Shown here: piece by piece, positions 17,830-37,601 of the stretch | Layout of the letters: every line of letters begins with the position of its first letter | Position numbering within the stretch: the stretch's first letter is position 1 | Assembly (NCBI GenBank): GCA_047947115.1 | Contig: CP170459.1 | Location: 1,664,001-1,728,000, forward strand | Origin: Verrucomicrobiota bacterium | Lineage (GTDB): Bacteria > Verrucomicrobiota > Verrucomicrobiia > Limisphaerales > AAA164-E04 | Direction: 5' to 3' | DNA: 64,000 nucleotides | Program-made: the position numbers and the translations under genes | Notes under the pieces: generated by a model | Told to the model about the DNA's origin: nothing | Databases searched by the model: none | Seen by the model: only the letters and a program-made list of their open reading frames with translations

Positions 17830-17862
17830 GATGGCGACCCTACCGGGGTTCGAACCCGGGTT
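17830..17862 (-). repeat. att core: duplicated 3' end of tRNA-Glu
   Basis: GATGGCGACCCTACCGGGGTTCGAACCCGGGTT identical to 37524-37556. Confidence 0.95.
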
Positions 17863-17933
17863 TCGACAGAACCTTAAAAAAACCGCTTTTTCAAGGTTTT
17901 TAGACATTCCTAGACATCCTTGACGCCCTTATC

Positions 17934-17954
17934 TGTTATGCTATTATGTTATGC
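17934..17954 (+). repeat. Putative integrase arm-type sites (left)
   Basis: TGTTATGC x2, starts 13 bp apart; same pair at 37442-37462. Confidence 0.7.
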
Positions 17955-17957
17955 ATT

Positions 17958-19103
17958 ATGGCAAGCATTCACCGGCAAAAAGGAAGGTCTTCTTGGTATT
18001 GCGCCTACACCGACCAAAATGGAGCTCGGCACTTTAAAAGTACTCGCACCTCTGACAAAAAGGAAGCGCGAAGAATCTGCAATGTGATGCAAGGGGCTGT
18101 CGATCGGATGAAATCCACCAAGCTTACACCGGCGACAGCACGTAAATTTATAGAGCGTAATCTGGAGGAACTCCTCCTTGCCTCCGGGACGCAATCCATG
18201 AGCTCAACTCCGCGGGAGTTTTTCGATGATTGGATCAAGGAGAAGGAAGTTACAACAGCGGCAAACACATTGGTAAGATACGAGTCAATAGTTCGTAATT
18301 TCCTAGACCATTTAGGACCACGAGCCATGCAACCCTTAGCAAACATCAACAGCATGGTAATCGAAAATTTCAGAAGCCACATCGCTAGATCCCAGTCACC
18401 AAGTTCAGCTAACCTAAACCTCAAGGTCATTCGCTCAGCATTCAAGAAAGCAGTCACACAAGCTTTGATTCCAGAGAATCCTGCTTCGAATGTCGAAACC
18501 ATCAAGAAACCACCCTCCCAAGCGCGCAGGCCCTTCCAACTTCCGGAACTGAAAAAGCTTTTGGAGGTGGCTAACTGCGATTGGCAAACAATGATTCTGG
18601 TTGGGCTTTACACCGGTCTGAGGCTGCGGGACTGTGCCAATCTTTGCTGGAACCAAGTCGATCTGCAAGTTGGTGAGATAACCGTTCAAACCAGCAAAAC
18701 TGCCAGAACGCAAGTGCTTCCAATGGCCACACCACTTATGAATCATGTTGCTAATTTGCCGTCAACCGATGATCCCCACTGTCCATTGGCCCCCTCCTGC
18801 TTCGATCTACCAAGTAACGTACTCTCAAACCAATTTTATGAGCTCATGACTACCGCGGGATTGGTCAAAAAGCGAACACATCAAAAATCTAAAAACGGTT
18901 TGTCGGGTTCGAGACAAGCTTCTGGTCTTGGTTTTCACTGCCTCCGGCATACCGCAACCAGTCTGCTGAAAAATGCGGGGGTTTCAGATGTAATTGCCCG
19001 TGACATAATTGGCCATGAGTCTGCTGCCATCTCCAGAGTCTACACCCACATTGACTCCGAAACAAAACGCCAAGCCGTCAACAAAATGCCATCCTTGTTC
19101 TAG
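17958..19103 (+). CDS. int: Tyrosine recombinase/integrase
   Basis: N-terminal arm-binding-like domain; YTGLRLRD, FHCLRH, IGHES, RVYTH catalytic residues intact. Confidence 0.95.
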   Translation: MASIHRQKGRSSWYCAYTDQNGARHFKSTRTSDKKEARRICNVMQGAVDRMKSTKLTPATARKFIERNLEELLLASGTQSMSSTPREFFDDWIKEKEVTTAANTLVRYESIVRNFLDHLGPRAMQPLANINSMVIENFRSHIARSQSPSSANLNLKVIRSAFKKAVTQALIPENPASNVETIKKPPSQARRPFQLPELKKLLEVANCDWQTMILVGLYTGLRLRDCANLCWNQVDLQVGEITVQTSKTARTQVLPMATPLMNHVANLPSTDDPHCPLAPSCFDLPSNVLSNQFYELMTTAGLVKKRTHQKSKNGLSGSRQASGLGFHCLRHTATSLLKNAGVSDVIARDIIGHESAAISRVYTHIDSETKRQAVNKMPSLF

Positions 19104-19145
19104 TGTTTTTGCGCGGCAGGTATCACCTCTAAATATTCTTAGACG

Positions 19146-20048
19146 ATGAGTCGAAATAAACAAAAGGCTTCAAACTTTCAGGGCAAGACTCGAGTGAAAG
19201 ACAATTCAAAGGGCTTTGAAGGTTGTTTATTGCCAAAAGAGGAATATCAGTTCTGGGACATACCTGAAAATGAGTATATCGAAGCCTATCAATATGAAAT
19301 AGAAAGAGAATCACGCCGTGACGGATCGAAACCCAAATCTCCCCAGGATTACCTATCAACTATCGATCCAGAGGATCCTCCATGGACGGCTTGGAGTGTA
19401 AGTGCAGAAAAATCAGCTTGGGATAGTTTTACCCATACTGGGAGCTCATATCCGCTATTAGTTGACAAAGAGTTGCCTACACATCCGTGCCGATCGCCCC
19501 AACCTAAAGCATTGATTCATCTTTCGCTTAATCCATACCAGCTTTCGACAGAAGAAAGCAAAAGTGTCCTTCAAAGTCTGCGTTCTACTTACCTAAAAGA
19601 GCTGTTGGCATCTGAGCAAAGCAGAAAAGATGCAATCTCCCTTGCGCTCTTTGAGATAGATTTTTCCCGTCCAGTCAATGAAATCCTTGATGAATTTAAA
19701 CATTGGCTGCAAGATAAAAGCAGCATCAAAATCGGAGGCAGACCACAAGAAGTTATTCCGAAGTTGTTCCGCCTTGCCATTTATCGATTAACAAGGGTGC
19801 ATTTTGATAGTGACGTCAAAAAGTTCTTGAAGAGTTTTAAAGCCCCCTTCAAACGCAGCATTGACGATAGAGACTTTCGAAGATTTAGGAAAAAGGCAGA
19901 AGACGAAATTATCAAAACGTTGAATTACTGCATTAGTGAAAACTTCTATGAGAAGTATTCGACGAAGGAATTGGTCAATGTGAAAAAAGATTTGATTTCA
20001 AAGTATCCTGACGAATATCTTAGGTCTGTTACTAGGCAGGATGCATGA
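19146..20048 (+). CDS. Hypothetical island protein (300 aa)
   Basis: Long ORF between integrase and xis-like gene; no family recognised. Confidence 0.7.
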   Translation: MSRNKQKASNFQGKTRVKDNSKGFEGCLLPKEEYQFWDIPENEYIEAYQYEIERESRRDGSKPKSPQDYLSTIDPEDPPWTAWSVSAEKSAWDSFTHTGSSYPLLVDKELPTHPCRSPQPKALIHLSLNPYQLSTEESKSVLQSLRSTYLKELLASEQSRKDAISLALFEIDFSRPVNEILDEFKHWLQDKSSIKIGGRPQEVIPKLFRLAIYRLTRVHFDSDVKKFLKSFKAPFKRSIDDRDFRRFRKKAEDEIIKTLNYCISENFYEKYSTKELVNVKKDLISKYPDEYLRSVTRQDA

Positions 20049-20139
20049 ATCCAGTCCTATTCATCGACTGCACCTTCAAAGGGGGGGGTAAAACCCTGCA
20101 GCAGGTTTGCACCCCTATTTTTCTCAATAGTGTTCTGCA

Positions 20140-20466
20140 ATGGTTGACGCGATGAACGTCAATCATATCGAATTACACAATCACAAATCGCCAAAACCAT
20201 TATTCTTCCGGCTTCCAAAGCCGGGCGAAACAGATCCCTACTTCGGAGCAAATCGTTCCTTCTGGAATGAACGGATCCTACCAACACCTCGGAACAACTA
20301 CGACCCCCCGATAAACTCCATCGTAGATCGAAAACCAGGTGCAAAAACCGGTTGTCGATTCATCGAATTCCAATCGGCGCTAAAATATTTTGAGGGGTTG
20401 CAAAACCATCCACCCCAACCCCACCCCCACAACAAAAATCTCAACAAGCAGGATAACCATAGGTAG
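20140..20466 (+). CDS. Putative excisionase/AlpA-like DNA-binding protein
   Basis: FFRLPKPGETDPYFGANRSFWNERI winged-helix-like pattern; position ahead of the replication genes. Confidence 0.5.
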   Translation: MVDAMNVNHIELHNHKSPKPLFFRLPKPGETDPYFGANRSFWNERILPTPRNNYDPPINSIVDRKPGAKTGCRFIEFQSALKYFEGLQNHPPQPHPHNKNLNKQDNHR

Positions 20467-20561
20467 GCCCCTTTTCGGGGTTACCCAAAGGTATACCTGC
20501 GCCTTGCGATTTTCTGTCACAAACCTATTTCCCGTGCATTGAGCACTCGAAAATAAAAGTT

Positions 20562-20972
20562 ATGAAACTAAAACTACAAATAGAAATTCCCCAAGAGGGA
20601 TGGCATCGAGCAATTTGCTCCGACATCATGGACAGAGGCTGTGTTGCAACAGAATATGGCAACAAGCATCTGGTCCGTTTCACATGGATGATCGTTCCAG
20701 AAGGCTCTTCAGAGCCGCTTCGGATCAGGAAATCCTACAACGCAACCCTGCATCCAAAAAGCAATCTGCTAAAGGATCTATCTGCATGGGTAGGTTCAGA
20801 GGAACTTCAGAACGAGTTCGATCTAATGAAGCTCAAGGGAAAGAAATGCCAACTGAAAGTAGCGCATTTCGAGGCCGAAGGTCAAACCATGGCCAAGGTA
20901 GTGGAAATCAAACCATTAACAGAAAACTTATCAATTGGGGAGGGTGTGTACTCTCCCAACTCAAATTTATGA
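20562..20972 (+). CDS. Phage-type OB-fold/ssDNA-binding-like replication protein
   Basis: PQEGWHRAIC.DI.D.G...Y.ATLHPKSNL.K.L..W...LKGKKCQL.V pattern of phage replication accessory proteins. Confidence 0.6.
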   Translation: MKLKLQIEIPQEGWHRAICSDIMDRGCVATEYGNKHLVRFTWMIVPEGSSEPLRIRKSYNATLHPKSNLLKDLSAWVGSEELQNEFDLMKLKGKKCQLKVAHFEAEGQTMAKVVEIKPLTENLSIGEGVYSPNSNL

Positions 20973-21988
20973 AACAGTTAAAAGTTCAAACTCCTACCAA
21001 GGTGCAGAGTCAAATTAAACAACTCAAACAAGCGCTTCCACTCCCAGATCTGATGGAAGCAATGGATTTCGGCGATTATGCCAAAAAATCATGTTCTTCA
21101 CCCTTCAGGGACGATAAGAATCCAAGTTTTGGGATTTATCAAGTTGAGACCAATTGGTTGTTCAAAGACCACGGAACAGGACTTGTTGGAGATGAAATTC
21201 AATTCATTGCCACTGTTCACGGTTTCGATCGGCACAAAGATTTTGCCAAGGTGTTGGACATATACAGAACCCTGGCTAAGGTTGCCCCACCAAAGCGGAT
21301 CCGCCCTTTGCGCAGGACCAAGGATCAACCGGTTAACTTGGATCCCAAAATGTTTCTGGATGCAGAGGCATACGAGCAAGGTCGCGGCCTTCTGAAGCCC
21401 TCTAGGCAGATTCTGCAGCAAATGGCTCATGAGAGGCCTTACGGTCTGCAGGGACTGCTCTGGGCTTCGGAGCGCGGCGTTCTTAAGTGCAAGAACGAAT
21501 GCTACTACGTATGCGACAAAACAGGGAACGTCATTGAGGGACGGCGGCTGGACAACAAGCCATTTCCAGCAGGAATTAAAAGCAAGGCCGAGCCCGGTAG
21601 TCGGAAAAGCTGGCCCGTTGGTATTGTGGAGGCATCAAAGTTCAGGAACATAGCCTTGGTTGAGGGAATTCCGGATTTCCTGATAGCACATCACATCATC
21701 CAGACCGAACAGCCAGAACCGAATTGTGCACCAGTAGGCATGCTTGGCAGCACTTCACTCATTAATGAGGCCGCGCTTCCTTTCTTCAAAGGCAAAGTGA
21801 TTAGGATCTTCGGACATGATGACGAAGCTGGAAGGCGAGCGGCATCCCGCTGGAAAAAACAGTTACTTGGTGAAGGCTGCTCTTCAGTGGAGGTATACGA
21901 ATTGTCGCCATTTGAAGGGGTGAACGACCTTTATGATTACTGGAGCCAACATGGAGACCTGTGCGAACGATGGATGCCGAACAATTAA
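20969..21988 (+). CDS. DNA primase (Zn-finger-like + Toprim)
   Basis: SPFRDDKNPSF, FKDHGTG..GD, LVEGIPD, GHDDEAG; ATGA overlap with upstream gene. Confidence 0.85.
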   Translation: MKQLKVQTPTKVQSQIKQLKQALPLPDLMEAMDFGDYAKKSCSSPFRDDKNPSFGIYQVETNWLFKDHGTGLVGDEIQFIATVHGFDRHKDFAKVLDIYRTLAKVAPPKRIRPLRRTKDQPVNLDPKMFLDAEAYEQGRGLLKPSRQILQQMAHERPYGLQGLLWASERGVLKCKNECYYVCDKTGNVIEGRRLDNKPFPAGIKSKAEPGSRKSWPVGIVEASKFRNIALVEGIPDFLIAHHIIQTEQPEPNCAPVGMLGSTSLINEAALPFFKGKVIRIFGHDDEAGRRAASRWKKQLLGEGCSSVEVYELSPFEGVNDLYDYWSQHGDLCERWMPNN

Positions 21989-23013
21989 TTCTGGATCCAC
22001 TGGATCTTGCCTTGGCGCAAGGCAATGATCTGCCGGAGATAACACCCCTCAGTCAATTGAATCCGCAGGATCGCGAGAAGCCCGCGGAATTGATTGATGG
22101 GGTGTTACACGCCGGTTGCAAAATGATCATTGGCGGTGGATCCAAATCCAACAAGACTTGGATCCTGATGCAACTTGCACATGCACTGGCTTCAGGCGGA
22201 AGCTGGTTGGATTTTAAAACTAACAAGTGCCGCGTTTTGTATGTCAATATGGAACTGCTCACTTCGTTTTTCTTGGAGCGCATGGACAATATTGATCAAT
22301 CGATCAAAGGTGTTGTCGCAAAATATCCCGATGGTGGAATGGAGAACATCGACTACTGGGGCTTGCGCGGTCACAATCCCGATATTACGACCATCAGAGA
22401 AGCCATATGCAGCCGGGCAGCTCCGATGAAGTATGGGGCCATTATCCTTGATCCGCTTTACAAGATCATGGCCGGTAGGAATGAAAACGCCGCCGGGGAA
22501 ATAGCGGAGTTTTTGAACATAATTGATGACATAGCCAACCAGACCGGTGCCGCCGTCATCAGTGCTCACCATTTTTCCAAGGGCAACCAAGCCGGCAAGG
22601 AACAAATGGATCGATTCTCAGGCAGTGGTGTATTTGCTCGAGATCCGGATGCACTGGTGACAATGACCAAGCACAAGGAAGAGGATTGTTTCACTGTGGA
22701 CTTGGTCCTGCGTAATCATCCGAGTGTTGAAAGCTTCGTGATAAGCTGGAGTCATCCTGTTTGTACAAGAGTTGACTTCGATCCTTCTGATCTGAAGACC
22801 AAGGCAGGAGCAAGCAAGAAGTATTCATCAGAGCAATTGCTTGAGTTGTTGCCGGTTTCAGGTTGCAAAACAAAGGACTGGCTCAAGCTTGCCAGAGAAG
22901 AGACAGGAATGAGCGAACGTACTTTTCACAATTTGCTCAAGCAGCTTGAGCATGATGGTTCAGTGACCAAGGAACCTAAGACTCGTATCTGGACTACTGC
23001 AGCGTTGCAGTGA
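21970..23013 (+). CDS. RepA-like AAA (AAA_25) replicative helicase with C-terminal wHTH
   Basis: Walker A GGSKSNKT, VLYVNME, Walker B IILDP, HHFSK, SGSG. Confidence 0.88.
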   Translation: MDAEQLILDPLDLALAQGNDLPEITPLSQLNPQDREKPAELIDGVLHAGCKMIIGGGSKSNKTWILMQLAHALASGGSWLDFKTNKCRVLYVNMELLTSFFLERMDNIDQSIKGVVAKYPDGGMENIDYWGLRGHNPDITTIREAICSRAAPMKYGAIILDPLYKIMAGRNENAAGEIAEFLNIIDDIANQTGAAVISAHHFSKGNQAGKEQMDRFSGSGVFARDPDALVTMTKHKEEDCFTVDLVLRNHPSVESFVISWSHPVCTRVDFDPSDLKTKAGASKKYSSEQLLELLPVSGCKTKDWLKLAREETGMSERTFHNLLKQLEHDGSVTKEPKTRIWTTAALQ

Positions 23014-23122
23014 AAAAGCTAAAGCCAGGTTAACTGCATACTGCAAAAACCCTTTAGGGTTTGCAGTTGCAGTAACTGGCAGGTTTATTACTGTTCTGCA
23101 GTGCAGGAAACCAGTTGCAGTA
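22996..23122. repeat. TGCA(G)-rich iteron-like cluster with central palindrome; putative island ori
   Basis: Nine TGCA in ~125 bp, arranged around CTGCAAAAACCC-TTTA-GGGTTTGCAG, right after the helicase. Confidence 0.6.
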
Positions 23123-23227
23123 AAACGCACAGGTAAAAAGTAGACGCCGGAATACACCCAGCGACAGCCATCCGATCAACTCTGAGCGGAGTTGACTGGA
23201 ACGCCCCGTTGGTTAGATTCATTGAAA

Positions 23228-23509
23228 ATGATCAGACCAACTTTTGAAATCGAGGGAGGCGACGACGATTTTGAGCTCGTGTATTCTCCATTGTGCCAAG
23301 TCATCAGCATTGGCGACGACTCTGTTTCCGTTAAAATTTACGGAGACGGAGAAGGCAAATGGATACTTGAGGTTGAAGACGAATACGATAATTCGACCGT
23401 CTGGGATGATCCCTTTGATACCGATCAGGAGGCTCTGGACGAAGTTCTTAAAACCATACGGGAAGAAGGGATCTGGTGTTTGATTGGCGAACCAGACTCG
23501 TCCGACTAA
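23228..23509 (+). CDS. Small acidic hypothetical protein
   Basis: VSVKIY...WILEVEDEYDNSTVWDDPF.TD..AL; protein-like composition. Confidence 0.7.
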   Translation: MIRPTFEIEGGDDDFELVYSPLCQVISIGDDSVSVKIYGDGEGKWILEVEDEYDNSTVWDDPFDTDQEALDEVLKTIREEGIWCLIGEPDSSD

Positions 23510-23565
23510 GTTTTATGACACAAAACAGTATTGTCGAACACATCTGCATGATGTAGGTTGTTTTC

Positions 23566-23684
23566 GTCATCAGGAACGGTCCTGCAAGTTGCAAGACCTG
23601 GCAACCTGGCTGGGAGAGCCAAGGTGCCTTCGATACTGAAAAGTATCGGATGAGCCACTCAATTGAGTGGAAAGTAAGTCTCCT
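23566..23684 (+). ncRNA. SAM-I/IV riboswitch aptamer
   Basis: P1 TCATC/GATGA; P2 GGTC/GACC; GGCAACC...GGTGCC P3; P4 CGATACT-GAAA-AGTATCG; P5 CCACTC/GAGTGG; L3 GGAGA can pair with 3' TCTCC (PK-2). Confidence 0.8.
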
Positions 23685-23693
23685 CCGGATTTT

Positions 23694-23733
23694 AGACCCG
23701 CGTTCCTGATTGGAGTGCGGGTCTTTTGTTTTT
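23694..23733 (+). terminator. Riboswitch expression-platform terminator
   Basis: AGACCCGCGTTCC...GGAGTGCGGGTCT followed by TTTGTTTTT. Confidence 0.8.
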
Positions 23734-23779
23734 GGATTCCTGATGGCTGTTAGTGCAAACAACCAAAAGAAAGTCAGGA

Positions 23780-24028
23780 ATGAATAACTGGACACTATCA
23801 ATAAGAATTCGGGAATCCAACCCCGACCATCACCTATTCCAAAATCACGGCACCTGGTGGTGTCACTTCTGGGCGATTGAGGATGGATTCCGACAGGAAC
23901 GGTTCCGCGTGAATCTCCAAACAAAATCCCGCACTAAGGCCCACCAGAAACGGAATTCATTGCTTCGTGACGGTTGGAAAAATGTTGTTTCGAATTCAAA
24001 AGAAGGGGTCCAAAATGCCTTATTCTAA
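23780..24028 (+). CDS. Small basic hypothetical protein downstream of SAM riboswitch
   Basis: NPDHHLFQNHGTWWCHF...RFRVNLQTKS...RN; resembles beta-sheet DNA-binding domains. Confidence 0.7.
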   Translation: MNNWTLSIRIRESNPDHHLFQNHGTWWCHFWAIEDGFRQERFRVNLQTKSRTKAHQKRNSLLRDGWKNVVSNSKEGVQNALF

Positions 24029-25608
24029 CCCGGATATTTCATCAAAACCAGAAATACCCACAAATTGGTTTTCATTGTAGCTCAAGGTTGAGTTTGGAGA
24101 GGTCAGACGCACCTTTTTAAGGTTCTTTTCGAATTGAGGATACACTCCCCCAATCCCCCATTGTTTTTCGACGTGCCGGGGCAGCACTCTGGGCATGTTA
24201 TCCTGTGTTCAGTTTGGCGTGAACATGTGCAAAGAGTTTTTGATAGGGGTATGCCTGACTCATCAATAATCGAATGCGTCTTGTGTTTTTCAGGACGATG
24301 GTTCCAATTTTGAACAGTTTCAGTCGGATGGTGCTGACCTGGGCTCGAGCCATTTCACTTCCTTTCAATCCAACTCGGCGGATGGTTTCCATCAGCACAT
24401 AGGCAGCACTGCTGAGCAGGAGTCGAAACTGATTGCTCCACCATTTATGACAACTGGTTCGGTCGGCGAATAATCCAAGCTGTTGTTCCTTGATGCGGTT
24501 TTCCATTTCTCCCCGAGCACAATAAATCTTCTCGTAGATATGCTGGGCATTGCCCGAAAGGTTACTCACCACAAATCTGGGATTGCTGCCCTGTCGATTA
24601 TGTTCCGCTTTAATGATCACCATTCTTTCCTGATCCCAGGAATGTGCCTTGTATTGGAGACAGGCAAAGTGGCGTTGTTTTTCACCAGTCTTTTCAAAGA
24701 GAACAGCGGATTCTGAAATAAGGTTTTGTCCTTGTTCAAGCAATCGTGGGTTTTTGGCGATTCCAACAACATACTTCACTTCATGACGTTCGCACCAACG
24801 CAACATTCTCCAACGACAAAACCCGGAGTCTCCCCGGAAGATGATGCGTACTTTGGGCCATTTTTGGCGCAGGCGTTGAACTAGCAATTTGAGAATGGCC
24901 CATGCATGACGTGCAGGATCAATATTGCTTGGGCGTAGATAACTGACCAAGAGTTGCTCGCCACAAAAGACATAAAGAGGAAGGAAACACCAGCAATCGT
25001 AATACCCGTGAAAACTGCGTCTCTCCTGGCCGCCATGAACTCGATCATCAGTTGCGTCAAAATCCAGAATCAGTTCTTCCGGAGCTTTTTTGAAAGAGTT
25101 GATAAAAGTTTCAATCAAGACTTTCGAAAAATCCATCGCTGTTTGGCGATCTGCCCGAGCTTCAAAGCGACACAAAGTAGGACTGCTGGCAAGCGAATCA
25201 GAACGTTCCACAGCACTTTGAATGAGTGGATCCTTTCGGAGGCAATCGTGATCGTTGAGATCTTCGTATCCCAAGGCCAGGCCGTAAATGCGTTGACGCA
25301 ACAAATCGAGAGTGGAATGAGCCGTCCGGCCAGATTGACGAGGATCGGTCATCACCTTGGAAATCGATTTGGTAAGACCAAGTAACCGATCAGCCTGCCT
25401 TAAAACAAAGCACCACCGTCCGAGGAAATGTGACCACCGCTGAAAGAAGCCTCAATTTTTCGTCGTTCAAGGCTTGGAAACTCAAAAGAAATCTGGTTAC
25501 ACTTTGTCATTAGCGGAGTTTTTACTGGTTTTTGTTTCAACACCAACAACCATATGGGATTATCCCAAAAACTTCGCTAATTTTTTTTAATTTAATGAAA
25601 TATCCGGG
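24029..25608 (-). mobile_element. IS1380-family element
   Basis: Terminal IRs CCCGGATATTTCAT / ATGAAATATCCGGG; CTA on both flanks. Confidence 0.88.
24198..25510 (-). pseudogene. IS1380 transposase, frameshifted near 25403
   Basis: N-terminus MTKCNQ...FSGGHISSDGGAL out of frame with GYEDLND, LDFDATDD, RGDSGF, RGEMENRIKE. Confidence 0.85.
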
Positions 25609-25611
25609 CTA

Positions 25612-28265: not shown

Positions 28266-28291
28266 TAATCAGGCTTCAATAAGGTTTTTTT

Positions 28292-31200
28292 ATGCAATTA
28301 TTTTTGAAAAAAGCATTGCTCGCCATATTATACTTTTCTTGCTCCTGCCCCATTTGGGCAGCAGAGCAAGCAGCACATGTTATAGCGAGTGGTTCGGTAT
28401 CCGAGTCCGGTGGATTCACTAACCACTCTGCCATCGGCCAATCATTCGCATATTTATCAGGCAACGCTGCTGGGGCGTTCGTGAATTATGGTGGGTTCAT
28501 CAATGGCTTTGAAGGCGGTTTTGCCGTTGATTCAGACGGCGATGGTTTGAGTGACGAGGAAGAGCTTGAATTGGGGATCAATCCGAACTCTAAGGACACG
28601 GATGGTGAAGGCCTTGAAGATAAGGCGGAAGTTGATTTTGGAAGCAATCCCTTGATCCAAGATACTGATGGAGATGGATCCAATGATTACGAGGAATTCC
28701 TCAATGGAACCGATCCCAATGTTTTTGACATTACCTACGAGTGGCCTGAACCATCTGCTATCGTTTACGGCACGCCCTTGCCAGAGAGTGCGTTTGAAAT
28801 AACCACCAATGTTGAGGGTAACGTTTCCCATCCCTTTGGCATGGCCAAGCCTGGTGATATACTCAATGCAGGTAATCGGCTTTTGGCGGTTAATTTTATT
28901 GCAAATACAGGTGGAACTAAGCTCCTTACTCAAAATATTTCCGTCACCCAAATGGCCATCAACCTGATTTCTGCTGCTGATTCTTACCCGTTTGGTTCTA
29001 CCCTAGAAGATATCTTGATAACATCCGCTGGATTTGTGAATGGTGATTCTTATGCTGACATTGATGCAGCTCCAGCACTAGATTTTTCCCAGGTCAATTT
29101 CTCATTGCCCGGGGCATACACTGTTTCCTATTCCGGTGCCATTGATAACAACTATTTCATTGCTGATGGGGCCTTCGAAATCAGCATCAGTAGTGAAGGG
29201 TTTGATTCCTTCTCATTTCTTACTGAAGATCTGGTAGCCTATTTTCCTCTGGATGGTAATGGACTGGATTTCAGTGGTAATAGTCACCACGGCGAAGGTG
29301 ATTTTGAGTTTGCGGAGGATCGATTTGGCAGATCTCGGGCAGCTTACAAATCAAACACCGAGACATTCTTTTCAACTGGTCCAACAAGTCACCCAACAGG
29401 TAATGCATCATTTACCTACTCTTGTTGGTTTAATGGAATGAACGGACTAAGCGATCCAGATATCCTAATTGCGACTGGCGGTGACCAGGAACACGAAGCT
29501 TCTTTTTTTGGGATTAGTAACGACCAACTTGTTTTTGATACCATTGGAGATGTCTCCGAGAAAGGACAGATTCCATCGAATGGTTGGCATCACGCTGTTT
29601 TTACAAAAAATGGAAATAGTGCGTCTTTTTATCTAAATGGTAATTTTGTCAGTGATGCACACATTACCCAGCAAAATATTGAAGTTACCAATATCAGAAT
29701 TGGTTGGAGCGGATATTCGACCATGAACAAAGGTCAGCATTTTGTTGGTTCAATAGATGATGTTCGCATATACGACAGGGCCCTAGATAAGAATTCCATC
29801 AAGTTGATTTATGCTTATGAATCAGACGAAACCAATTATCCATTCGTAAACAACTCCCCTGTGGCCTCAGACCAAACATTGAACTTAGGACAAGGATCCT
29901 CAAAGGAGATTAAGCTTTCTGCCGACGACCCGGATGGTGACTCCGTCGTTTTTTCTGTAATATTGAACCCGATCAACGGTACCCTCAGCGGTACGGCACC
30001 CAATCTTATCTACTCTCCTAATGCCGATTTTGTTGGCACAGATACCTTTACCTTTAAAGTGAATGATGGGGACTTGGATTCCAATGTGGCTACGGTGACC
30101 ATCACGGTGAATCCCGTTGAGGAAATATTCGTTTGGGACCCATCGGACATTGTCTATGGTCAAGATGCGTTGATTCACATCTTTAACGCCACTTCAACAA
30201 TTCCAGCCAGTATCTTCTACTTTGACGCTGATACGAAACTACCGTTCGTGGCCGATTCCAAACTCTCAGCCGGTGAATACTCCTTGGAAGTTTTATTCAT
30301 GCCAGATGACCTTGCATCCCACCTGCCTAAACGGGAAAGCGCTACCATTTCTGTATCCAAGGCCCGTCTGGATGTCGCTGTTCCGAGCATTGAAGTGGAA
30401 GTAGGGGGCCCCATCCCAAATTTAGGTATTTCCTACTCTGGATTTGTCTGGGATGAGACCCCTGAATCGCTCATCTCAGCACCGATCATCAATCTGGGTG
30501 TTATTGATTTTGCTACGCCTGGAGTCTATCAGGGTAGTCTTTTGGGAGGTGAATCCTATAATTATGACCTGGTCGTAAATCCATTCACCATCACGGTCAC
30601 TCAGCCTGGGATCCAAATTGTCTGGGATGATTTGCCTGAGCTGACCTACGGGGATTTGTTGAGCGACAATGTGCTGAATGCCTCAGCCAATGTGCCTGGT
30701 TTATTTGTTTATCAGCCAGGTCCAGGTTCGCTGCCCGATGTGGGCCAAACCATTGTCAAGGCGACCTTTGTTCCGGATGATCTTGTCTCCTACTTGCCAG
30801 TGGTGACACAGAAGACCTTGATTGTTAATAAGAGGACGCTTGAGGTTTCCATGCCTGATTTGGAGGTCGAAAAGGGCAGCCCTCTCCCAGCGCTGACATC
30901 CTATGAGATCTCAGGGTTTGTGGGGCAAGATGCGGAAGGTGATTTGGACAACCCACTTGTCTTCAGCATTCAGGGTGGGAACCCTTCTCAAGTGGGGCAG
31001 TATCCCATAACAATGAGTTTTGCTGGTGATAATCAATATGTAGTGAACTTTTCTGGTGCCAAGCTGGTGATCACTGAACCTGTGTTCGTTAGCCAAATTC
31101 AGTGGGCTGAGATACCGGATAATTCACTTGAATACGGAGACATTCTCGATGACAGCACTCTAGGTGCTCAGTCAGAGGTGCCCGGGCTGATTATCTACAC

Positions 31201-34198
31201 ACCTCCTATGGGAACCCGAGTGGATGTCGGTGAGCTGACCATCAGGCTCACTTTTGTCCCCGATGATTTGATTGATCATAAGACAGAGGTCATCACGCAA
31301 ACCGTTTCGGTTGCCAAGCGTCGATTGGTGGCGACAATGGAAGATGTCTCGGTCATTCAAGGTCAATCTGATGTTCCACTTGATCGCTACCAGGTTACAG
31401 GTTTTGTCGAAGGTGAGTCTGAAGCGGACTTGGATAATCCAATTGAATTTAAGGTTGCTGGAGGTATTCCTGCGCAGCCAGGTTCCTACCCCATTGAGAT
31501 GATCTTCAACGGTGATGACCACTATGAAGTGATGTTTTTGGGGGCGAACCTCGTCGTGCAGAGTGTGCAGCCGGAACTTTCATGGGTTGTCACAGATCAC
31601 ACCTACGGTGATAGCATTGCGGCCAATGTGCTCACCGCATCAAGCAATTTACCTGGCGACATCACTTACCGAATCGTCGGTAGCGACGAGACTGTTGACG
31701 CCAATACCCAACTTGGTGCTGGAAGCCATACCATCATGGCCACCTGGACTTCCGGTAATGCCGGAGTGGAGCCGATTAGCGAAATCAGACAGGTGAATAT
31801 TGCCAAGGCGCAGTTGTTACTCACAGTTCAGCCTTTGATTGTGCAGCCAGGTGCCGCCTCAGTGCCACCAATTGATTATGTCATTGAAGGTTTCCAGTAT
31901 GAGGAGACAGAGAGCGTCTTTACCTTTACCCTCATATTCGACCTCGGAGGTAGTTACAAGAGACCAGGTGAATATCCTCTGACATTGTCTGCCAACTGGC
32001 CTGAGCAGCCCAATTATGAGGTGCTGACCATTCCTAGCACGATGACGGTCATGGGTGAAGAAATGGAAGTCACTTGGGATCTGCAGCAAGACCAATACAT
32101 TTATGGTGATTTGGCTTCCAAGGCACTGCTCTCTGCTGAAAGTAATGTGGAGGGCCAGTTTCTCTATCAAATAAAGAAGGTGGGGGGGCAAGTAAGTGGT
32201 ATCTTGACTAGCGGCACGGTGTTGCCTGTCGGGGAACACGTGGTGACCATGACCTTCATTCCTGAAGAGAAGCCGCAAGACCTTGTAGTCATTGAGAAAA
32301 CGATCACCGTTTCCAAGGCTAACCTGGTCGTGAGAGCCAATGGTTTGAACATAATTGTAGGTTCGCCTTATCAGAACCAGCTCTCAGCCAGCTATGAAGG
32401 TTTTGTGTTTGAAGACGCAGAAAAAGATCTTCAGGTGAAACCACGGCTGTCTGTTCCTAACTTCGTTCAAAACCTGGCCGGCCAATATGAAATCCAGGTT
32501 TCTGGTGGCAGTGATGAAAGCTATGACTTCACCTATGTTTCTGGGGTCTTGAACGTGGCCGAAAACGCTAGTTTTCCCGATATCGCTTTTGTGGAGCCAG
32601 TGGTTAACCCAGTCAATGTGGCTGAGGGCAGGGGGGTCACGCTTCGGTTTCAGCTGGATGGTGTCGTTCCAACCAACGCTTCAGTCAGTGTGAGCAAGGA
32701 TGGTTTGCCATTTGGTAAAACACGTATTGATGGCGACAGCATTTATCTGGATATCGATGCGGCGGTGAGATCTGATTCGGGTAACTACATCGCCAGATTA
32801 GCCATTCCTCAATTCAAGGCGATTGAATCCTCGTCTCTGGAACTCAATGTGATCTACAAATCATTGCTAGGCATGGGATTGCTGAACTATCGCCAGAGCA
32901 ACCAGCCCATGTTGGGTGCCCCGATTGTGAATGATGACAACTCGGTCGTGATAAGCACCAAAGATGGCACTTTCTACGGATATCAATCCAATCCAGCCAC
33001 AGGAGATATCGAGCCTGCTTGGGCCTATTCGATGGGGCAGGATATCCTCGGGAATATCCTCAAAGGTGAAGACGATAATTATTACGCACTCTCAGACAAA
33101 GGAACGCTGATTAAATTCAAGCAAGAGGCCACCTCAGGAACTCAGGTCTGGGAGTTTGACACGGACGAACAGGGATCCCTCAGCAACGGTTTCACCAACT
33201 CACCTACCATCCTCAACGATGAGATCGTTGTCTTTGGGTGGATTGATGGACACGTCTATGCCGTGAATCGGCAGACAGGTGACTTGGTATGGAAGACGGA
33301 CTTGGGTGGCATGGTCTTTACCCCTGTAGCTGTTTATGAAGACAAGATTTACACCCATACCTGGAATACTTGGTATTGTGTGTTGGATTCCAATGGTCAA
33401 ATTCTTCACAAAAATCCTATCAGCTACGGGCTTTATCGCCAACAACCTTCGGTGGATACAGATGGAACTGCCTTTCTGGGCTGCGATGATAGTTATGTTT
33501 ATGCTTTTTGGAGTAGTGGACTGTTGAAGTGGAGTTATGAGTGCGAGAATATTGTTTCCGGTGGTATCGTTGTGGGTGACCACTTCATTGCCTTCATTGA
33601 CCAGGAAGGCATTCTCTATTATCTCAAGAAGAGTACTGGTGCCGTCATTAAGAAATCTCAGTTGGCCAATACTCCAGGTTCCACATCCCATCTGACCATT
33701 GGCTATGATGGGACCATCGTGGTGGGTAGCCAGAAAGGAGGGCTTTTTGCCTTCACCGCTGATGGTCAGGTCATCTGGGAGTATCAAAGCGCCCCGACAA
33801 CCTGGGGTTCTCCATCGATCGGTCGTGATGGTAAGGTGTTTTTCGGTTCTGACGATGGCTATTTCTACGCAGTCCAGGGACATACCTCATTGGGTATGCA
33901 ATATCCCTGGTATAAGCAGGGAGCCAATCGCCTGAATACAGGCGGCCTTTGGTTGGCTACTCAGGATCCTGAATCAGGTGGGGGCTCTGGTAGCGGAGAA
34001 GGCCCAGATTTGATTGCTGGGATTGAAGGTGGGAACATCGTGATCAATGTGATCGCACATGACAAGCAGCGTGTCTACAAAGTCTACACCAGTGATGATT
34101 TGAAGTCTTGGGTCGAGGTTCCAGGGTATCGCCCCAATGTGAATGGCGAAATCAAACTTCCAGCGAATAGGCGGTCGCAATTTATCAAAGTTGAATAG
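28292..34198 (+). CDS. Large secreted surface protein/adhesin (DxDxDG repeats, LamG, Ig/tandem-95, MBG-like repeats, PQQ-type beta-propeller)
   Basis: 1968 aa; LVAYFPLDGN..D.SGN and GSIDDVRIYDRAL (LamG); GTDTFTFKVNDG; repeated W...YG...L.A / GFV..E units; IWEY..GSPSIG.DG.VFFGSDDG. Confidence 0.9.
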   Translation: MQLFLKKALLAILYFSCSCPIWAAEQAAHVIASGSVSESGGFTNHSAIGQSFAYLSGNAAGAFVNYGGFINGFEGGFAVDSDGDGLSDEEELELGINPNSKDTDGEGLEDKAEVDFGSNPLIQDTDGDGSNDYEEFLNGTDPNVFDITYEWPEPSAIVYGTPLPESAFEITTNVEGNVSHPFGMAKPGDILNAGNRLLAVNFIANTGGTKLLTQNISVTQMAINLISAADSYPFGSTLEDILITSAGFVNGDSYADIDAAPALDFSQVNFSLPGAYTVSYSGAIDNNYFIADGAFEISISSEGFDSFSFLTEDLVAYFPLDGNGLDFSGNSHHGEGDFEFAEDRFGRSRAAYKSNTETFFSTGPTSHPTGNASFTYSCWFNGMNGLSDPDILIATGGDQEHEASFFGISNDQLVFDTIGDVSEKGQIPSNGWHHAVFTKNGNSASFYLNGNFVSDAHITQQNIEVTNIRIGWSGYSTMNKGQHFVGSIDDVRIYDRALDKNSIKLIYAYESDETNYPFVNNSPVASDQTLNLGQGSSKEIKLSADDPDGDSVVFSVILNPINGTLSGTAPNLIYSPNADFVGTDTFTFKVNDGDLDSNVATVTITVNPVEEIFVWDPSDIVYGQDALIHIFNATSTIPASIFYFDADTKLPFVADSKLSAGEYSLEVLFMPDDLASHLPKRESATISVSKARLDVAVPSIEVEVGGPIPNLGISYSGFVWDETPESLISAPIINLGVIDFATPGVYQGSLLGGESYNYDLVVNPFTITVTQPGIQIVWDDLPELTYGDLLSDNVLNASANVPGLFVYQPGPGSLPDVGQTIVKATFVPDDLVSYLPVVTQKTLIVNKRTLEVSMPDLEVEKGSPLPALTSYEISGFVGQDAEGDLDNPLVFSIQGGNPSQVGQYPITMSFAGDNQYVVNFSGAKLVITEPVFVSQIQWAEIPDNSLEYGDILDDSTLGAQSEVPGLIIYTPPMGTRVDVGELTIRLTFVPDDLIDHKTEVITQTVSVAKRRLVATMEDVSVIQGQSDVPLDRYQVTGFVEGESEADLDNPIEFKVAGGIPAQPGSYPIEMIFNGDDHYEVMFLGANLVVQSVQPELSWVVTDHTYGDSIAANVLTASSNLPGDITYRIVGSDETVDANTQLGAGSHTIMATWTSGNAGVEPISEIRQVNIAKAQLLLTVQPLIVQPGAASVPPIDYVIEGFQYEETESVFTFTLIFDLGGSYKRPGEYPLTLSANWPEQPNYEVLTIPSTMTVMGEEMEVTWDLQQDQYIYGDLASKALLSAESNVEGQFLYQIKKVGGQVSGILTSGTVLPVGEHVVTMTFIPEEKPQDLVVIEKTITVSKANLVVRANGLNIIVGSPYQNQLSASYEGFVFEDAEKDLQVKPRLSVPNFVQNLAGQYEIQVSGGSDESYDFTYVSGVLNVAENASFPDIAFVEPVVNPVNVAEGRGVTLRFQLDGVVPTNASVSVSKDGLPFGKTRIDGDSIYLDIDAAVRSDSGNYIARLAIPQFKAIESSSLELNVIYKSLLGMGLLNYRQSNQPMLGAPIVNDDNSVVISTKDGTFYGYQSNPATGDIEPAWAYSMGQDILGNILKGEDDNYYALSDKGTLIKFKQEATSGTQVWEFDTDEQGSLSNGFTNSPTILNDEIVVFGWIDGHVYAVNRQTGDLVWKTDLGGMVFTPVAVYEDKIYTHTWNTWYCVLDSNGQILHKNPISYGLYRQQPSVDTDGTAFLGCDDSYVYAFWSSGLLKWSYECENIVSGGIVVGDHFIAFIDQEGILYYLKKSTGAVIKKSQLANTPGSTSHLTIGYDGTIVVGSQKGGLFAFTADGQVIWEYQSAPTTWGSPSIGRDGKVFFGSDDGYFYAVQGHTSLGMQYPWYKQGANRLNTGGLWLATQDPESGGGSGSGEGPDLIAGIEGGNIVINVIAHDKQRVYKVYTSDDLKSWVEVPGYRPNVNGEIKLPANRRSQFIKVE

Positions 34199-34230
34199 TA
34201 AATATCTTAAGAACAAGGAAATTTAAACTA

Positions 34231-35319
34231 ATGAAAAAGTTTTTTTGCACGTTTCTCTCATTGTTTTGGGTGACTCAGGTGGCGGGTCAGACGATTAATT
34301 ACCAGGGTAGGCTTACCGACGCCGGTGGGGAGCCAGTTAATGATACTGTGAATGTATCTTTGAAGATATATGATAGTGAGACGGAAGGGGCAGTTGTTTA
34401 CACCGAGGATGTGGGCGAGATCGAAGTAGTGAGTGGACTTTATTCTTTTAATTTCGGCTTGAATGGTAAGAGTATTGCAAATTCAGTGGAATTAATTGGG
34501 ACAGGGGATGGGGAAGTAAAGGTTTTCAATTACACAACGTATCACTTACCAATCGATGCGGAAATAGAGCTTTATGATGGGTTGTTTAGTTGGTCAAATG
34601 TAGGCGGCGCTTCAGACGCAGGCCAGTTTATTGGGAGCGTCAACATTGCAGAAAAATCTGTCACAGGAATTTACATAGCTTCTCCTCCGCCACAGGGCCG
34701 GAATATATATGTGGCCTACCAATATACCCTTGATGGTATAACTGGGGCTTTGACTGACCACGATTCGTCATACTTGGAGGTTAGCATCAATAATACAAAG
34801 CTTAGGCGGGAGAAAATAGCGGATTCGCCAATTTCTGTATTTGCAAAAAATATTTTGCGAGTAAATAAAAAAAATGTTCCTATTAATATAGTTCATCAAG
34901 GAAGGTTTGTTAATAATTTCAATGGGTTCAAATATTGTGACACACCCGCTTTCTTAATCGATTTTCCGGAAGTCGATTTCAGGGAACTGGTTTTCAAAGT
35001 GCGAGGTTTATCGCTTGATGACAATGTTGGCGGAAATGGTCCGTGCCATAGCAATTATAATGGGAAGCATTCCACTTCCGATGTGAGAATTAAATTGGTT
35101 GGCAGGAACCTTGAAACATTAGAGCTTGAGGAGTTGGCCGATATTGATGTTTACAGTAATCAAACCATGCCGCTTTCTAAAGATTACAATCTTTCCGGAT
35201 TTCTCCATCTGCAGCAGACCTATATGCTGGGGGTGCAAATTAAGGCCGCTGCCAGAGGAATCGGAGGCGGTGTGACAGCGGGCTACATACGGATCCCTTG
35301 CTACTGGGAAATGAAATAG
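34231..35319 (+). CDS. Secreted 'INYQGR' fibre-like protein, paralog 2
   Basis: Signal peptide then QTINYQGRL...SGLYSFNFG...GASDAGQFIGSVNI. Confidence 0.8.
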   Translation: MKKFFCTFLSLFWVTQVAGQTINYQGRLTDAGGEPVNDTVNVSLKIYDSETEGAVVYTEDVGEIEVVSGLYSFNFGLNGKSIANSVELIGTGDGEVKVFNYTTYHLPIDAEIELYDGLFSWSNVGGASDAGQFIGSVNIAEKSVTGIYIASPPPQGRNIYVAYQYTLDGITGALTDHDSSYLEVSINNTKLRREKIADSPISVFAKNILRVNKKNVPINIVHQGRFVNNFNGFKYCDTPAFLIDFPEVDFRELVFKVRGLSLDDNVGGNGPCHSNYNGKHSTSDVRIKLVGRNLETLELEELADIDVYSNQTMPLSKDYNLSGFLHLQQTYMLGVQIKAAARGIGGGVTAGYIRIPCYWEMK

Positions 35320-35461
35320 ACCTAGTGTTCTTATTTTCAAACGAAAATCCTTTTTCTTCTAAGTGTCAAAAATTTATTTCTTATTTGACTTTAATAACAT
35401 CCCAGACACCCATTTACGCCGAAGAATAAAAATTATCTCGCTCCATAACTATAACCAATTC

Positions 35462-36088
35462 ATGAAAAACATCCCAAAATATTGCTCTGCTGCTATTGTA
35501 GCAGCTCTCACCATGGCAGCGTCCTCTGCGAATGCTGAGAATTCAGTCATTCTCGACTATGACTACGCCTCTGCTGGGTATTTCTACAGAGACTACGACA
35601 CTGCACTGGGTAACGTGGACGGACACGGCGCAGGCATCGAAATTTCCAAGATGTTGGCAGGAGATTTTGGGCTGAGTTTGACCTCGATGGCAGGAAGTGT
35701 CTCCGATCTGGACGCTGACATGTGGGGCATTTCGCCCACATTGTTTTACGTGGTCAAAATATCCGAAACCATGAACTTGGTGCCGAATGTTGCCTGGAAC
35801 GTTGAGCATGTAGACTACAGCTCACTCGGAATGGACAATACTACCTCTGAGGTGCAGTTTGGCTTGAGGCTCGATACGGCAGTCACCGAATCCTTTCAGT
35901 TAAGTGTTGGCACGGAGTATCGCAACGTTGTGGGTTCCGATCTCCCTCTAGACGATGACGATCGCTGGGACTTCTATCTTGGTGCTAAACTTGCACTGTC
36001 CGATCAATTAGGGCTTGGGGCTCAGATATTGACGACTACTGAGAATGTCGACTTCGGTGGGCAGATTGGCTTGGAGTGGCATTTTTAG
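35462..36088 (+). CDS. Outer-membrane beta-barrel protein
   Basis: Signal peptide, alternating amphipathic strands, C-terminal GLEWHF (BAM-type signal). Confidence 0.8.
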   Translation: MKNIPKYCSAAIVAALTMAASSANAENSVILDYDYASAGYFYRDYDTALGNVDGHGAGIEISKMLAGDFGLSLTSMAGSVSDLDADMWGISPTLFYVVKISETMNLVPNVAWNVEHVDYSSLGMDNTTSEVQFGLRLDTAVTESFQLSVGTEYRNVVGSDLPLDDDDRWDFYLGAKLALSDQLGLGAQILTTTENVDFGGQIGLEWHF

Positions 36089-36113
36089 AAATCATCTAGC
36101 ATCTTATTATATT

Positions 36114-36147
36114 GCCTCGGGCACGCCTTTGCTGCCCGGGGCTTTTT
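36114..36147 (+). terminator. Intrinsic terminator
   Basis: GCCTCGGGCA...TGCCCGGGGC + TTTTT. Confidence 0.8.
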
Positions 36148-36242
36148 GTTTTAAGCCCCCTTGCTCACCATCTGTATTCCAGGCTCAATGAGTTCCTGAG
36201 TTGGCCTCAAGAACTTGGTGCAATTTACACCATGATAATTTA

Positions 36243-36436
36243 TAGTGATTGCCAAAAATCATTTCCGAATTGAGCAGATGGAAGCGGTTTTTTCTGGCGA
36301 TTGAACGAAGCTCATAAGTGCAGTGCTTATACGATCGGTCAGCTCCTCGGTAGTCTTCGCTAAAAAGTCGTAAAACCAATCTGCCTTGAGCCGTAACCAC
36401 AACCTTTCAATCGGATTGAAATCTGGAGAATAGGCT
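36243..36436 (-). pseudogene. IS630-family transposase 3' remnant
   Basis: Minus strand reads AYSPDFNPIERLWLRLKADWF...ICSIRK*; element end followed by TA. Confidence 0.8.
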
Positions 36437-36828
36437 GTAAGCGGTGTACCGGAGTCCCCCTGAATGATACTGTCAATTCAGATGGGATTGTTTAATTTGG
36501 AGGGTTCGCTTACCGGTTTGTGGGCAAGCAGCTTTTGATCCGGCTTTCAACAGCACTCCAGCGGCGTTCGCACCTCCAAGGCGGCAGCAGGCCAAAGTTT
36601 TCCAGTTGAGGGATGCATAAAATAGCCTAAAAAGACCAAAGTGGGTTTTTATTACTACTTTTTACTCCATCTAACCCTTAAAAGTCGGATTCTGGCATGG
36701 GCTGGACGCTGAAATGCAAGGTGTAGGGAAGCCGTTTCTGCTCCTAGCGCCAGTGGAGCTTAAACCATTGTTCAAAACTATAACGATACAGTGTTGAGTT
36801 TCGATGCAATATTCGATATGCTTTCAGC

Positions 36829-37272
36829 ATGTCTTCTCTACCCCTGGACATAAGACGACAAGCCAAGGAGCTCGTTGAAGCAGGAAAATCATCGCACGAG
36901 ATAGGCGCTCTTTTGGACATCAAACCAGGCACCGTTCGTGAGTGGAAACGCCGCTACCTCTGGCACGGGCCTGACGGACTGGATCGACAGTGTGGTGATG
37001 ACCTGGACGAAGACCAGCTCCCTGCCGAATACGAGCGGATCATGTCCACGGATGTCATGGAGACGCTACACTGGATCCGCCGAATGCCCATGCCGCGTCG
37101 CATCGATTCTATCCTGAAACGGGAGAGGGCGCTGGAGATGCTATCCAAGCGAGCTGAGCGGGTTATCGGCGGTTTGGCCCGGTCGCATGGGCAGCAGAGC
37201 AAGGTGATCCAGGTCAACTCTGTGACCGCGATTCTGAGCTCTAACGAAAACTCCGGGTGTGATGTGACTTGA
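36829..37272 (+). CDS. HTH protein resembling a terminase small subunit
   Basis: AKELVEAGKSSHEIGALLDIKPGTVREWKRRYLW N-terminal HTH; last gene of the island. Confidence 0.55.
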   Translation: MSSLPLDIRRQAKELVEAGKSSHEIGALLDIKPGTVREWKRRYLWHGPDGLDRQCGDDLDEDQLPAEYERIMSTDVMETLHWIRRMPMPRRIDSILKRERALEMLSKRAERVIGGLARSHGQQSKVIQVNSVTAILSSNENSGCDVT

Positions 37273-37441
37273 TACGGTTTTTGGTGGTAAACAGAGCCTT
37301 GGACAGATTATCTCGCAGTCACGGGGCTTCTGCTGTTCGATTTCACCCTCCTAACCGTTTATTGTATAGGTCCATAGTTGCTCTGTTTATTCTGCTTTAA
37401 CATCTCCAAACGCGTTTTGACATCCATAACACGGACACACA

Positions 37442-37462
37442 TGTTATGCATAGGTGTTATGC
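37442..37462 (+). repeat. Putative integrase arm-type sites (right)
   Basis: TGTTATGC x2, 13 bp apart, plus inverted CATAACA at 37425. Confidence 0.7.
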
Positions 37463-37525
37463 TGTTGCATGGTCGAGGAATGAAGGTATGACTGAAGCTT
37501 CTCTATGAGAAATACTTGAGGGGGA

Positions 37526-37601
37526 TGGCGACCCTACCGGGGTTCGAACCCGGGTTACCGCCGTGAAAGGGCGGTGTCCTAGACCACTAGACGATAGGGT
37601 C
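37526..37601 (-). tRNA. tRNA-Glu(TTC)
   Basis: 76-nt cloverleaf: GACCCTA acceptor, CCGCC-CTTTCAC-GGCGG anticodon arm, GTTCGAA T-loop, CCA end. Confidence 0.97.

Follow-up and report, generated by a model that had tools for sequence, protein, structure and literature searches.

A tRNA-integrated island family of marine Verrucomicrobiota that joins a likely terminase small subunit with large cargo

Phage-inducible chromosomal islands (PICIs) are described almost exclusively (>99.9%) from Proteobacteria or Firmicutes, and the available main text of the survey that reports this does not contain the term 'Verrucomicrobia' (PMC10085698). Marine integrative mobile elements encapsidated in virions (VEIMEs) carry an integrase, an excisionase and a primase/helicase or PolA, and some have a terminase small subunit (TerS) most similar to those of co-occurring phages (PMC9618062); in the available parts of that report 14 virion-encapsidated VEIMEs have Verrucomicrobia hosts, 13 of them in module 3, a module dominated by serine recombinases (Eppley et al. 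2022, PMC9618062). Here we analyze a stretch of 64,000 nucleotides (C1:1,664,001-1,728,000 of genome G000, hereafter the window) that contains element A, an island of 19.7 kb that occupies a tRNA gene in a marine member of the Verrucomicrobiota and ends in a gene for a likely TerS. Probably a phage satellite, it is integrated at this tRNA and brings an integrase, a primase and a helicase of its own. An earlier note on the same DNA had inferred a possibly undescribed satellite family of the Planctomycetes-Verrucomicrobia-Chlamydiae group; with 14 VEIMEs already reported, satellites in Verrucomicrobia are not entirely undescribed. The openly available literature on satellites of Verrucomicrobia, Limisphaerales or Pedosphaerales yielded no account of this element family, the VEIME paper alone being relevant. 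What seems new is a TerS-like family, specific to this lineage, that sits at the tRNA attachment (att) ends of cargo islands 20-49 kb long whose integrases and replicons can be exchanged, together with a candidate phage donor.

The likeness to a PICI lies in an integrase with att sites, a regulator slot, a primase-replicase and a putative small terminase in the conserved order, and no tail, holin, portal or head-tail genes were detected. If both tentative calls (regulator and TerS) hold, this would be the layout of a type B PICI (four of five). No capsid-morphogenesis gene was detected among the open reading frames (ORFs) of the element, of which ORF2 and two small ORFs are without assignment, and such a gene is absent from many valid type B PICIs. 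On the other hand, no AlpA/MerR profile picks up the regulator, the likeness of the TerS family to library TerS is confined to the helix-turn-helix (HTH), and the cargo is placed between replicon and TerS. The genes of capsid-forming PICIs (own capsid, portal, terminase large subunit or TerL, head-tail genes) are all missing from the element. Integrative and conjugative or mobilizable elements are a poor match as well, with no relaxase or type IV secretion family among the element ORFs and no VirB4 match in the genome, no genome-wide relaxase search having been made. Tycheposons, as far as their available description goes, share the tRNA target, the inward-facing tyrosine integrase, the adjacent small replication module, the modular cargo and the marine host; in that description PICI-like (terS/MCP) tycheposons were never seen with additional cargo (Hackl et al., bioRxiv 10.1101/2020.12.28.424599), whereas islands of the present family hold 9-40 kb of cargo along with a TerS-like gene. 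Recovery from virions is what defines a VEIME, and element A is known from assembled sequence, so that the two are set apart by their available descriptions and may overlap. Vibrio PICI-like elements (PLEs) offer a further parallel: in the accessible text they are satellites of a lytic phage that combine the helper's TerL with packaging-specificity proteins of their own (PMC11417361), and at about 18 kb they are similar in size to element A (PMC10085698). Compared by the same partial descriptions, however, PLEs are genetically uniform, whereas the element family is modular, with several integrases and replicons. We tentatively propose that element A works like a type B PICI or a PICI-like tycheposon, and that it may be a variant among satellites of the PICI/VEIME type, set apart by its combination of TerS and large cargo.

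The ends of element A are two att repeats at 17830-17862 and 37524-37556, identical at 33/33 positions and spaced 19,694 bp apart; a genome-wide search found the full repeat at these two sites only in the 6.08-Mb single-contig genome. The repeat consists of the last 31 nt of tRNA-Glu(TTC) plus 2 nt. Its right copy overlaps the intact target gene, predicted at 37526-37601 on the minus strand, and the copy on the integrase side is the displaced tRNA-Glu 3' end. Just inside the ends, tandem TTATG(C/T) motifs on the plus strand (17936-17950) have two matching copies at 37444 and 37457, and such pairs are likely arm-type integrase sites. All element genes lie on the plus strand, except one transposase. 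Close homologs of window genes are labelled Verrucomicrobia or Limisphaerales in their sources, and the metagenome runs containing window DNA are mostly from seawater, estuary and marsh.

From left to right the element carries the integrase, a 300-aa ORF, a 108-aa ORF, an NGO0469-family gene, a primase, an AAA_25 helicase and a cluster of TGCA repeats, followed by a 105-aa ORF, a SAM-I/IV riboswitch, a small ORF, two insertion sequences (IS), the cargo and the terminal HTH gene. The inward-facing tyrosine integrase (17958-19103, plus strand) is an intact open frame that matches PF00589 (E=2.8e-16) and phrog_1 (E=3e-56), with the catalytic motifs GLR, HCLRH and GH...Y in its translation. The replication genes, all on the plus strand, comprise an NGO0469-family phage replication protein (20562-20972; NF046043, 81.8 bits against a cut-off of 75), a primase with CHC2 zinc finger and Toprim-like domains (20969-21988; phrog_47, E=8.7e-12, the CHC2 and Toprim matches being weak in Pfam) and an AAA_25 replicative helicase (21961-23013; PF13481, E=9.8e-25). 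The TGCA cluster (22991-23135) holds nine TGCA in 145 bp, the genome-wide maximum, which is common to element A and its sister element B only (next best 6, expected 0.54); by its sequence it is likely the replication origin. Neither Pfam and NCBIfam, above cut-off among 15 element ORFs, nor PHROGs, with any convincing match among 13, revealed capsid, tail, lysis or conjugation families. The earlier note is thus borne out on the perfect repeats at tRNA-Glu, the intact integrase, the primase and helicase genes, the iteron-like region and the lack of capsid, tail, lysis and conjugation genes, and its PICI-like layout stands in that the island is tRNA-integrated, polymorphic and self-replicating with a PICI-like gene order. 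It did not mention the riboswitch, the two IS elements, the conserved 300-aa ORF or the sister elements.

Two genes between integrase and replicon are less easily named. ORF2 (19146-20048, plus strand; 300 aa) belongs to no known family and has a 29% homolog in sister D; most relatives, too, have a gene of about this size in the slot between int and xis. With an Atlas lead to PF20109 in 18% of one cluster, it is a possible regulator. The 108-aa product of 20140-20466 (plus strand) is likely an excisionase/AlpA-type regulator because of its slot, which holds HTH_17 genes in sisters B and D. Its model has the order beta-alpha-beta-beta-alpha and a winged-helix-like topology (predicted local distance difference test, pLDDT, 89.6). 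The xis/AlpA-like assignment made earlier is tentative: slot and topology fit it, whereas no library family (Pfam, PHROGs, NCBIfam), AlpA/MerR profiles included, matched and Foldseek returned nothing at E<=0.001, the highest-probability row being the putative excisionase 2kvv (probability 0.21).

Natural populations are polymorphic for the element. Of 21 listed runs, seven water metagenomes were examined as assembled contigs, and two of the seven have empty tRNA-Glu sites: a contig of run X3 skips 17826-37521, and one of run X6, which comes from a population about 5% divergent in the flank, connects the left flank by way of the repeat with tRNA-Glu. The empty attB that the earlier note had asked for is therefore present in nature, whereas the circle junction was not seen in the seven runs. 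A right-end contig of run X9 stops within the att repeat. In four runs the backbone is covered and the cargo between 27.7 and 35.7 kb almost uncovered, a coverage hole that we do not count as evidence. In runs X1 and X2, contigs link window positions 36257 and 17706 by a stretch of 40 letters that looks like the left flank, which suggests that the right part of the element may be similar to strain variants of the flank.

These data bear on the idea that the element is a prophage in decay, or an island that does not move, with a relic HTH gene. The two IS insertions, a sister C integrase truncated by IS1380, and broken gene copies and partial backbones in relatives would fit decay. However, all backbone frames are open, the terminal gene has low ratios of nonsynonymous to synonymous change (dN/dS, 0.04-0.14), no structural-gene debris was detected in the element, sites are empty in nature, and nearly identical modules stand at different tRNAs within G000 (4 nt differences at the integrase start, 3 nt in the helicase). 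We therefore consider decay very improbable.

The same modules recur in sister elements of G000, located by tblastn and att searches: B (22.4 kb, at a secondary site; G000:C1:4516439-4538845), C (49.2 kb, tRNA-Ser(CGA)), D (45.8 kb, tRNA-Ser(GCT)) and E (39.5 kb, tRNA-Leu(CAG)). Sister B combines the element A replicon, at 97% nucleotide identity (primase 97% identical; helicase with 2 aa differences), with another integrase, an att repeat of only 8 bp and a type I-E CRISPR-Cas cargo, whose array of 40 repeats stops about 150 bp upstream of that element's TerS-like gene. Sister C starts with an integrase that differs from that of element A by 4 nt in 396 (132 codons) before its truncation by IS1380, and G000:C1:158162-158670 is nearly identical to window 17845-18353 (integrase start and arm region). 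One integrase may thus use two tRNA targets, tRNA-Ser(CGA) and tRNA-Glu, and that of element A might complement the IS-broken copy of sister C in trans. Sisters D and E have a PolA-type replicon. Integrase, replicon and TerS-like gene reassort as modules among the sisters. The expectation of the earlier note that the backbone is conserved as a unit is upheld in that it recurs as a family, in sisters and related genomes, and fails in that its parts are swappable.

The terminal gene (36829-37272, plus strand), a likely TerS gene, encodes 147 aa and ends 251 bp before the att repeat. The predicted protein has an HTH (residues 6-43), helices at 61-85 and 90-119 and a short C-terminal segment. An HTH, two long helices and a short tail are the usual TerS layout. 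The gene occurs five times in G000 (81-92% identical), at the att ends of A, B, C and D and once inside C, and four of the five copies lie 245-261 bp from att. Of 49 loci examined, nine were too short to judge; in 32 of the other 40 the distance to a tRNA gene or fragment is 183-313 bp, about nine different tRNAs being involved, and no TerL was found among the scanned neighbors. The family, 64 proteins, is lineage-restricted: 9/22 genomes of the taxonomic family have it (G000, 6/7 congeners, and 2/3 and 0/11 in the other two genera), and full-length copies were found in 2/301 genomes sampled across the order. Purifying selection acts on the gene (dN/dS in the range given above in 12/12 comparisons, some saturated and one with a partner carrying a stop codon). 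A four-copy model reached an oligomer score of 0.51 against 0.00 for the best control (run agreement at least 57%, pLDDT at least 61), with one face of helices 61-115 packing on a different face of the next copy in a ring-like arrangement; 20/30 solved homo-pairs and 1/23 single chains reached the same mark, counts that apply only approximately here.

The closest outside homolog is encoded by a phage. A profile search found 38% identity over 128 aa (E=1e-25) on IMGVR_UViG_3300006919_000075, a complete phage of 52,768 bp with terminal repeats and 73 called ORFs. Ahead of its TerL (phrog_2, E=1.4e-20) stands a virion protein of 1255 aa, and the 50/73 ORFs scanned (976 nt not covered) yielded neither a TerS nor an integrase family. 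About 1.2 kb separate the homolog from an array of tandem repeats at the end of the contig (L136-L138). The best-covering match among 50,697 phage records is a gene of Fusobacterium phage phiRTG5 that overlaps the start of TerL and is followed by the portal gene (E=0.3 from the window protein, E=1e-3 from the homolog in the 52.8-kb phage). Profile-profile comparison with this gene gave 97.6% over 120 columns, and with the HTH removed the score of 22.6 exceeded those of 60/60 column shuffles and 40/40 seven-residue block shuffles. The terminal gene is likely of TerS ancestry, and a present packaging function is on balance favored. The earlier TerS-like assignment of 36829 is accordingly favored by the phage homologs, the oligomer model and the selection, and not by the libraries or by Foldseek.

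As to the phage itself, its TerL matched in 2/401 Verrucomicrobiota genomes, had no match at E<=1e-10 among the 50,697 phage records, and returned only itself in the IMG/VR scan. In one of the two, G667, of the same class, three further structural-region genes and a helicase match the 52.8-kb phage at 21-29%, a weak sequence-based hint at the host phylum of that phage. In the G667 prophage the gene upstream of TerL, 185 aa long, was also compared, and it and the terminal gene are not homologous. Sister B's 39 spacers gave only chance matches of 13-22 nt to the 52.8-kb phage and the fetched loci. Genes for sugar epimerase and methyltransferase are also present on the phage; an 11-nt unit is repeated in tandem at the ends of the contig, and a low-complexity region of Ser/Arg or Ala/Gly repeats lies between about 5.3 and 8.6 kb.

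Several observations weigh against a packaging satellite. Library matches of the terminal protein are confined to the HTH (Terminase_5 covers aa 7-53 only) and are equalled by generic HTH and transposase families, and therefore do not alone justify the name TerS. Foldseek found no match to the model at E<=0.001, and VIA-align only HTH matches (top Z 6.0), the G20C small terminase ranking 19th (Z 5.1, root-mean-square deviation 2.2, 47 aligned), level with generic HTHs. The oligomer result may be recall of solved rings by the model. For the phiRTG5 pair, the HHalign probability without the HTH is only 15%, and the shuffle control overstates the case because the pair was chosen as the best match. 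A distance of 27 kb separates TerL from the homolog in the 52.8-kb phage, so that the TerS role of the latter is assigned by exclusion. The 49 loci are not independent, many being redundant; several relatives hold broken copies and sister E has no terminal gene. The element family spans 19.7-49 kb, against a PICI median of 9.5 kb in the available text (PMC10085698). No attP junction was seen in the seven runs, a weak test since contigs break at the 33-bp repeat. Finally, the virome check proposed by the earlier note came back negative: no IMG/VR contig has a close relative of the integrase, the helicase or the terminal gene, and further scans brought up one phage only, all of these scans depending on exact short peptides.

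The lack of IMG/VR copies would also suit a different account, in which the element is an integrative cargo carrier akin to the cargo tycheposons, travels in vesicles or by some other route without capsids, and uses a phage-derived HTH protein as an att regulator or recombination accessory. The distance from the terminal gene to att is fixed across three integrase types, the DNA similarity of copies with different integrases stops at the terminal-gene stop codon, and in the circle the terminal gene would stand just upstream of int across attP. In the available description, moreover, cargo tycheposon genes are found in vesicles and not in phage fractions (Hackl et al., bioRxiv 2020.12.28.424599). 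What this account explains less well is that the closest outside homolog sits in a phage without a detected integrase, that the second occupies the TerS position of phiRTG5, and that the predicted ring-type self-association fits a TerS. We regard it as a possible but rather unlikely explanation.

A satellite needs heads, and the only head source detected in the genome is a resident 41.5-kb prophage at tRNA-Met (G000:C1:3010958-3052476) with an integrase and a PolA 33% identical to that of the 52.8-kb phage. Its GpA-type TerL (E=1.9e-45) and lambda-type portal (E=3.7e-25) are open frames; its capsid, tail-tube and tape-measure genes were judged by sequence and position only, and genome searches with PF03237, PF03354 and PF04860 do not pick up this lambda-type prophage. 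An element A that used its terminase and heads would be a satellite of this prophage. Nevertheless, the two share DNA only at chance level (best E=0.2), the terminal-gene profile found nothing significant in the prophage (best E=0.03), and sisters C (49.2 kb) and D (45.8 kb) exceed the prophage genome in size, so that we hold such a dependence to be highly unlikely. The 52.8-kb lytic phage type fits better as a helper candidate because only it has a homolog of the terminal gene. Shared DNA suggestive of packaging-site mimicry was found between the element and neither phage.

In the proposed cycle, Int and the product of ORF 20140 would excise the element, which would then replicate from the repeat cluster at 22991-23135. 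The predicted small terminase would steer the packaging motor of a helper phage onto element DNA, perhaps from a packaging site in or near the terminal gene, about 250 bp from att. Concatemers would be packaged by the headful and swappable cargo carried in full-size heads. The four TerS-bearing elements (19.7, 22.4, 45.8 and 49.2 kb) are all smaller than the 52.8-kb phage, and together with the lack of a detected head-size gene this fits concatemer packaging in full-size heads, as described for VEIMEs in the available text (PMC9618062). In its most specific form the proposal is that a lineage-specific satellite family of marine Limisphaerales fills the whole ~53-kb head of a lytic phage without shrinking it and so carries up to 45 kb of cargo, such as giant surface proteins, CRISPR-Cas and signaling genes, that islands become packageable as a whole through a plug-in TerS placed about 250 bp inward from whichever tRNA att end they have, and that IMGVR_UViG_3300006919_000075 or its kin is the helper; we offer this form as a tentative and, taken whole, doubtful scheme. 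Lateral transduction of the neighboring chromosome is a speculative extension, possible because the terminal gene points toward tRNA-Glu and the chromosome; PICIs can, in the part of the report available, package DNA downstream of their integration site (PMC12829572).

The remaining features of element A lie between the replicon and the terminal gene. A 105-aa acidic ORF (23192-23509, plus strand), identical in sister B, has no family above cut-off, and a PF11246 baseplate match (E=0.08, below cut-off) was dismissed as noise. It is followed on the plus strand by a SAM-I/IV riboswitch (23562-23686; RF01725, 48.6 bits, gathering score 41.1) and a small ORF (23753-24028, with an ATG at 23780) of no family, 84% identical in sister B; the whole segment 23562-24028 is also present in sister B, and part of it lies near the sister D replicon (C1:3854290). 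Two abutting IS elements, together 3.07 kb, mark the junction of backbone and cargo: an IS1380 (24025-25612, minus strand; transposase 24198-25355, NF033539 above cut-off, six genome matches) and an IS1182/IS5-like element (25610-27098, plus strand; transposase 25687-27087). The IS1380 interrupts, just past its start, a 71-aa gene that is whole in sister B, so that the pair shows the place at which cargo was exchanged.

The cargo, all on the plus strand, consists of two likely secreted paralogs (27183-28265 and 34231-35319; 39% identity over 200 aa; NF053851, E=6e-6 and E=1e-6, both below cut-off), the first weakly resembling the N-terminus of a Bdellovibrio mosaic adhesive trimer, a 1968-aa surface protein between them (28292-34198) with TSP3, LamG, Big_9 and MBG_2 repeats and a PQQ-type beta-propeller in Pfam, and an outer-membrane beta-barrel (35363-36088; PF13505, E=8.8e-8). 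The earlier view that the element moves adhesion and surface modules does not extend to the family, since the cargo of the sisters comprises type I-E CRISPR-Cas, kinase/ECF sigma genes, photolyase-like genes and others. A 119-bp dispersed repeat (36436-36554) has at least four further copies across the genome; some adjoin IS elements, and the repeat is possibly a miniature inverted-repeat transposable element or an IS end.

Beyond G000, the ORF 20140 family occurs in 26/301 genomes across the order, with a co-oriented integrase at most 3.5 kb upstream in 12/20 fetched loci (three query integrases only) and varying replicons downstream. Clear packaging or virion genes, of other families, are present in 3/13 scanned loci and therefore link this backbone to satellites and degenerate phages. 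Two of them, L072 (8107-18988, G105) and L081 (G235), span about 10 kb with a phrog_57 TerS and a Clp-type head protease, no TerL or portal being detected. The third, L073:1190-11408 (G289), about 10 kb at tRNA-Leu, begins with the same int-ORF2-xis order and has a weak TerS as well as a tape-measure-like gene; with no capsid detected, it is a possible tail-forming satellite. Other loci are reduced. At tRNA-Glu in L015 (9403-10405, G005), a TerS-like gene follows, after about 350 bp, the 3' end of a 96% identical integrase that has an IS next to it, and the locus is a deletion derivative without replicon. In L132, L133 and L150 the 3' end of the helicase runs directly into the latter half of the TerS-like gene, next to a tRNA-Thr gene or fragment; these loci are collapsed remnants. 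Further duplicated 3' ends in G000, of tRNA-Thr(CGT) at 4306, tRNA-Asn at 1941987 and tmRNA at 2495055, mark islands of about 9, 55 and 29 kb, respectively.

How large islands move in marine bacteria without conjugation genes is the open question that these elements address. In the available description, tycheposons are split into those with cargo and no packaging genes and those with TerS and no cargo; the present family joins both, and a single genome holds four of its TerS-bearing islands, 20-49 kb in size. The complete phage supplies a candidate TerS/TerL pair open to in vitro testing. If the proposal is true, it would add a TerS family that current satellite profiles see only through the generic HTH, and it would explain the turnover of giant surface proteins and CRISPR-Cas in a little-studied lineage of marine Verrucomicrobiota.

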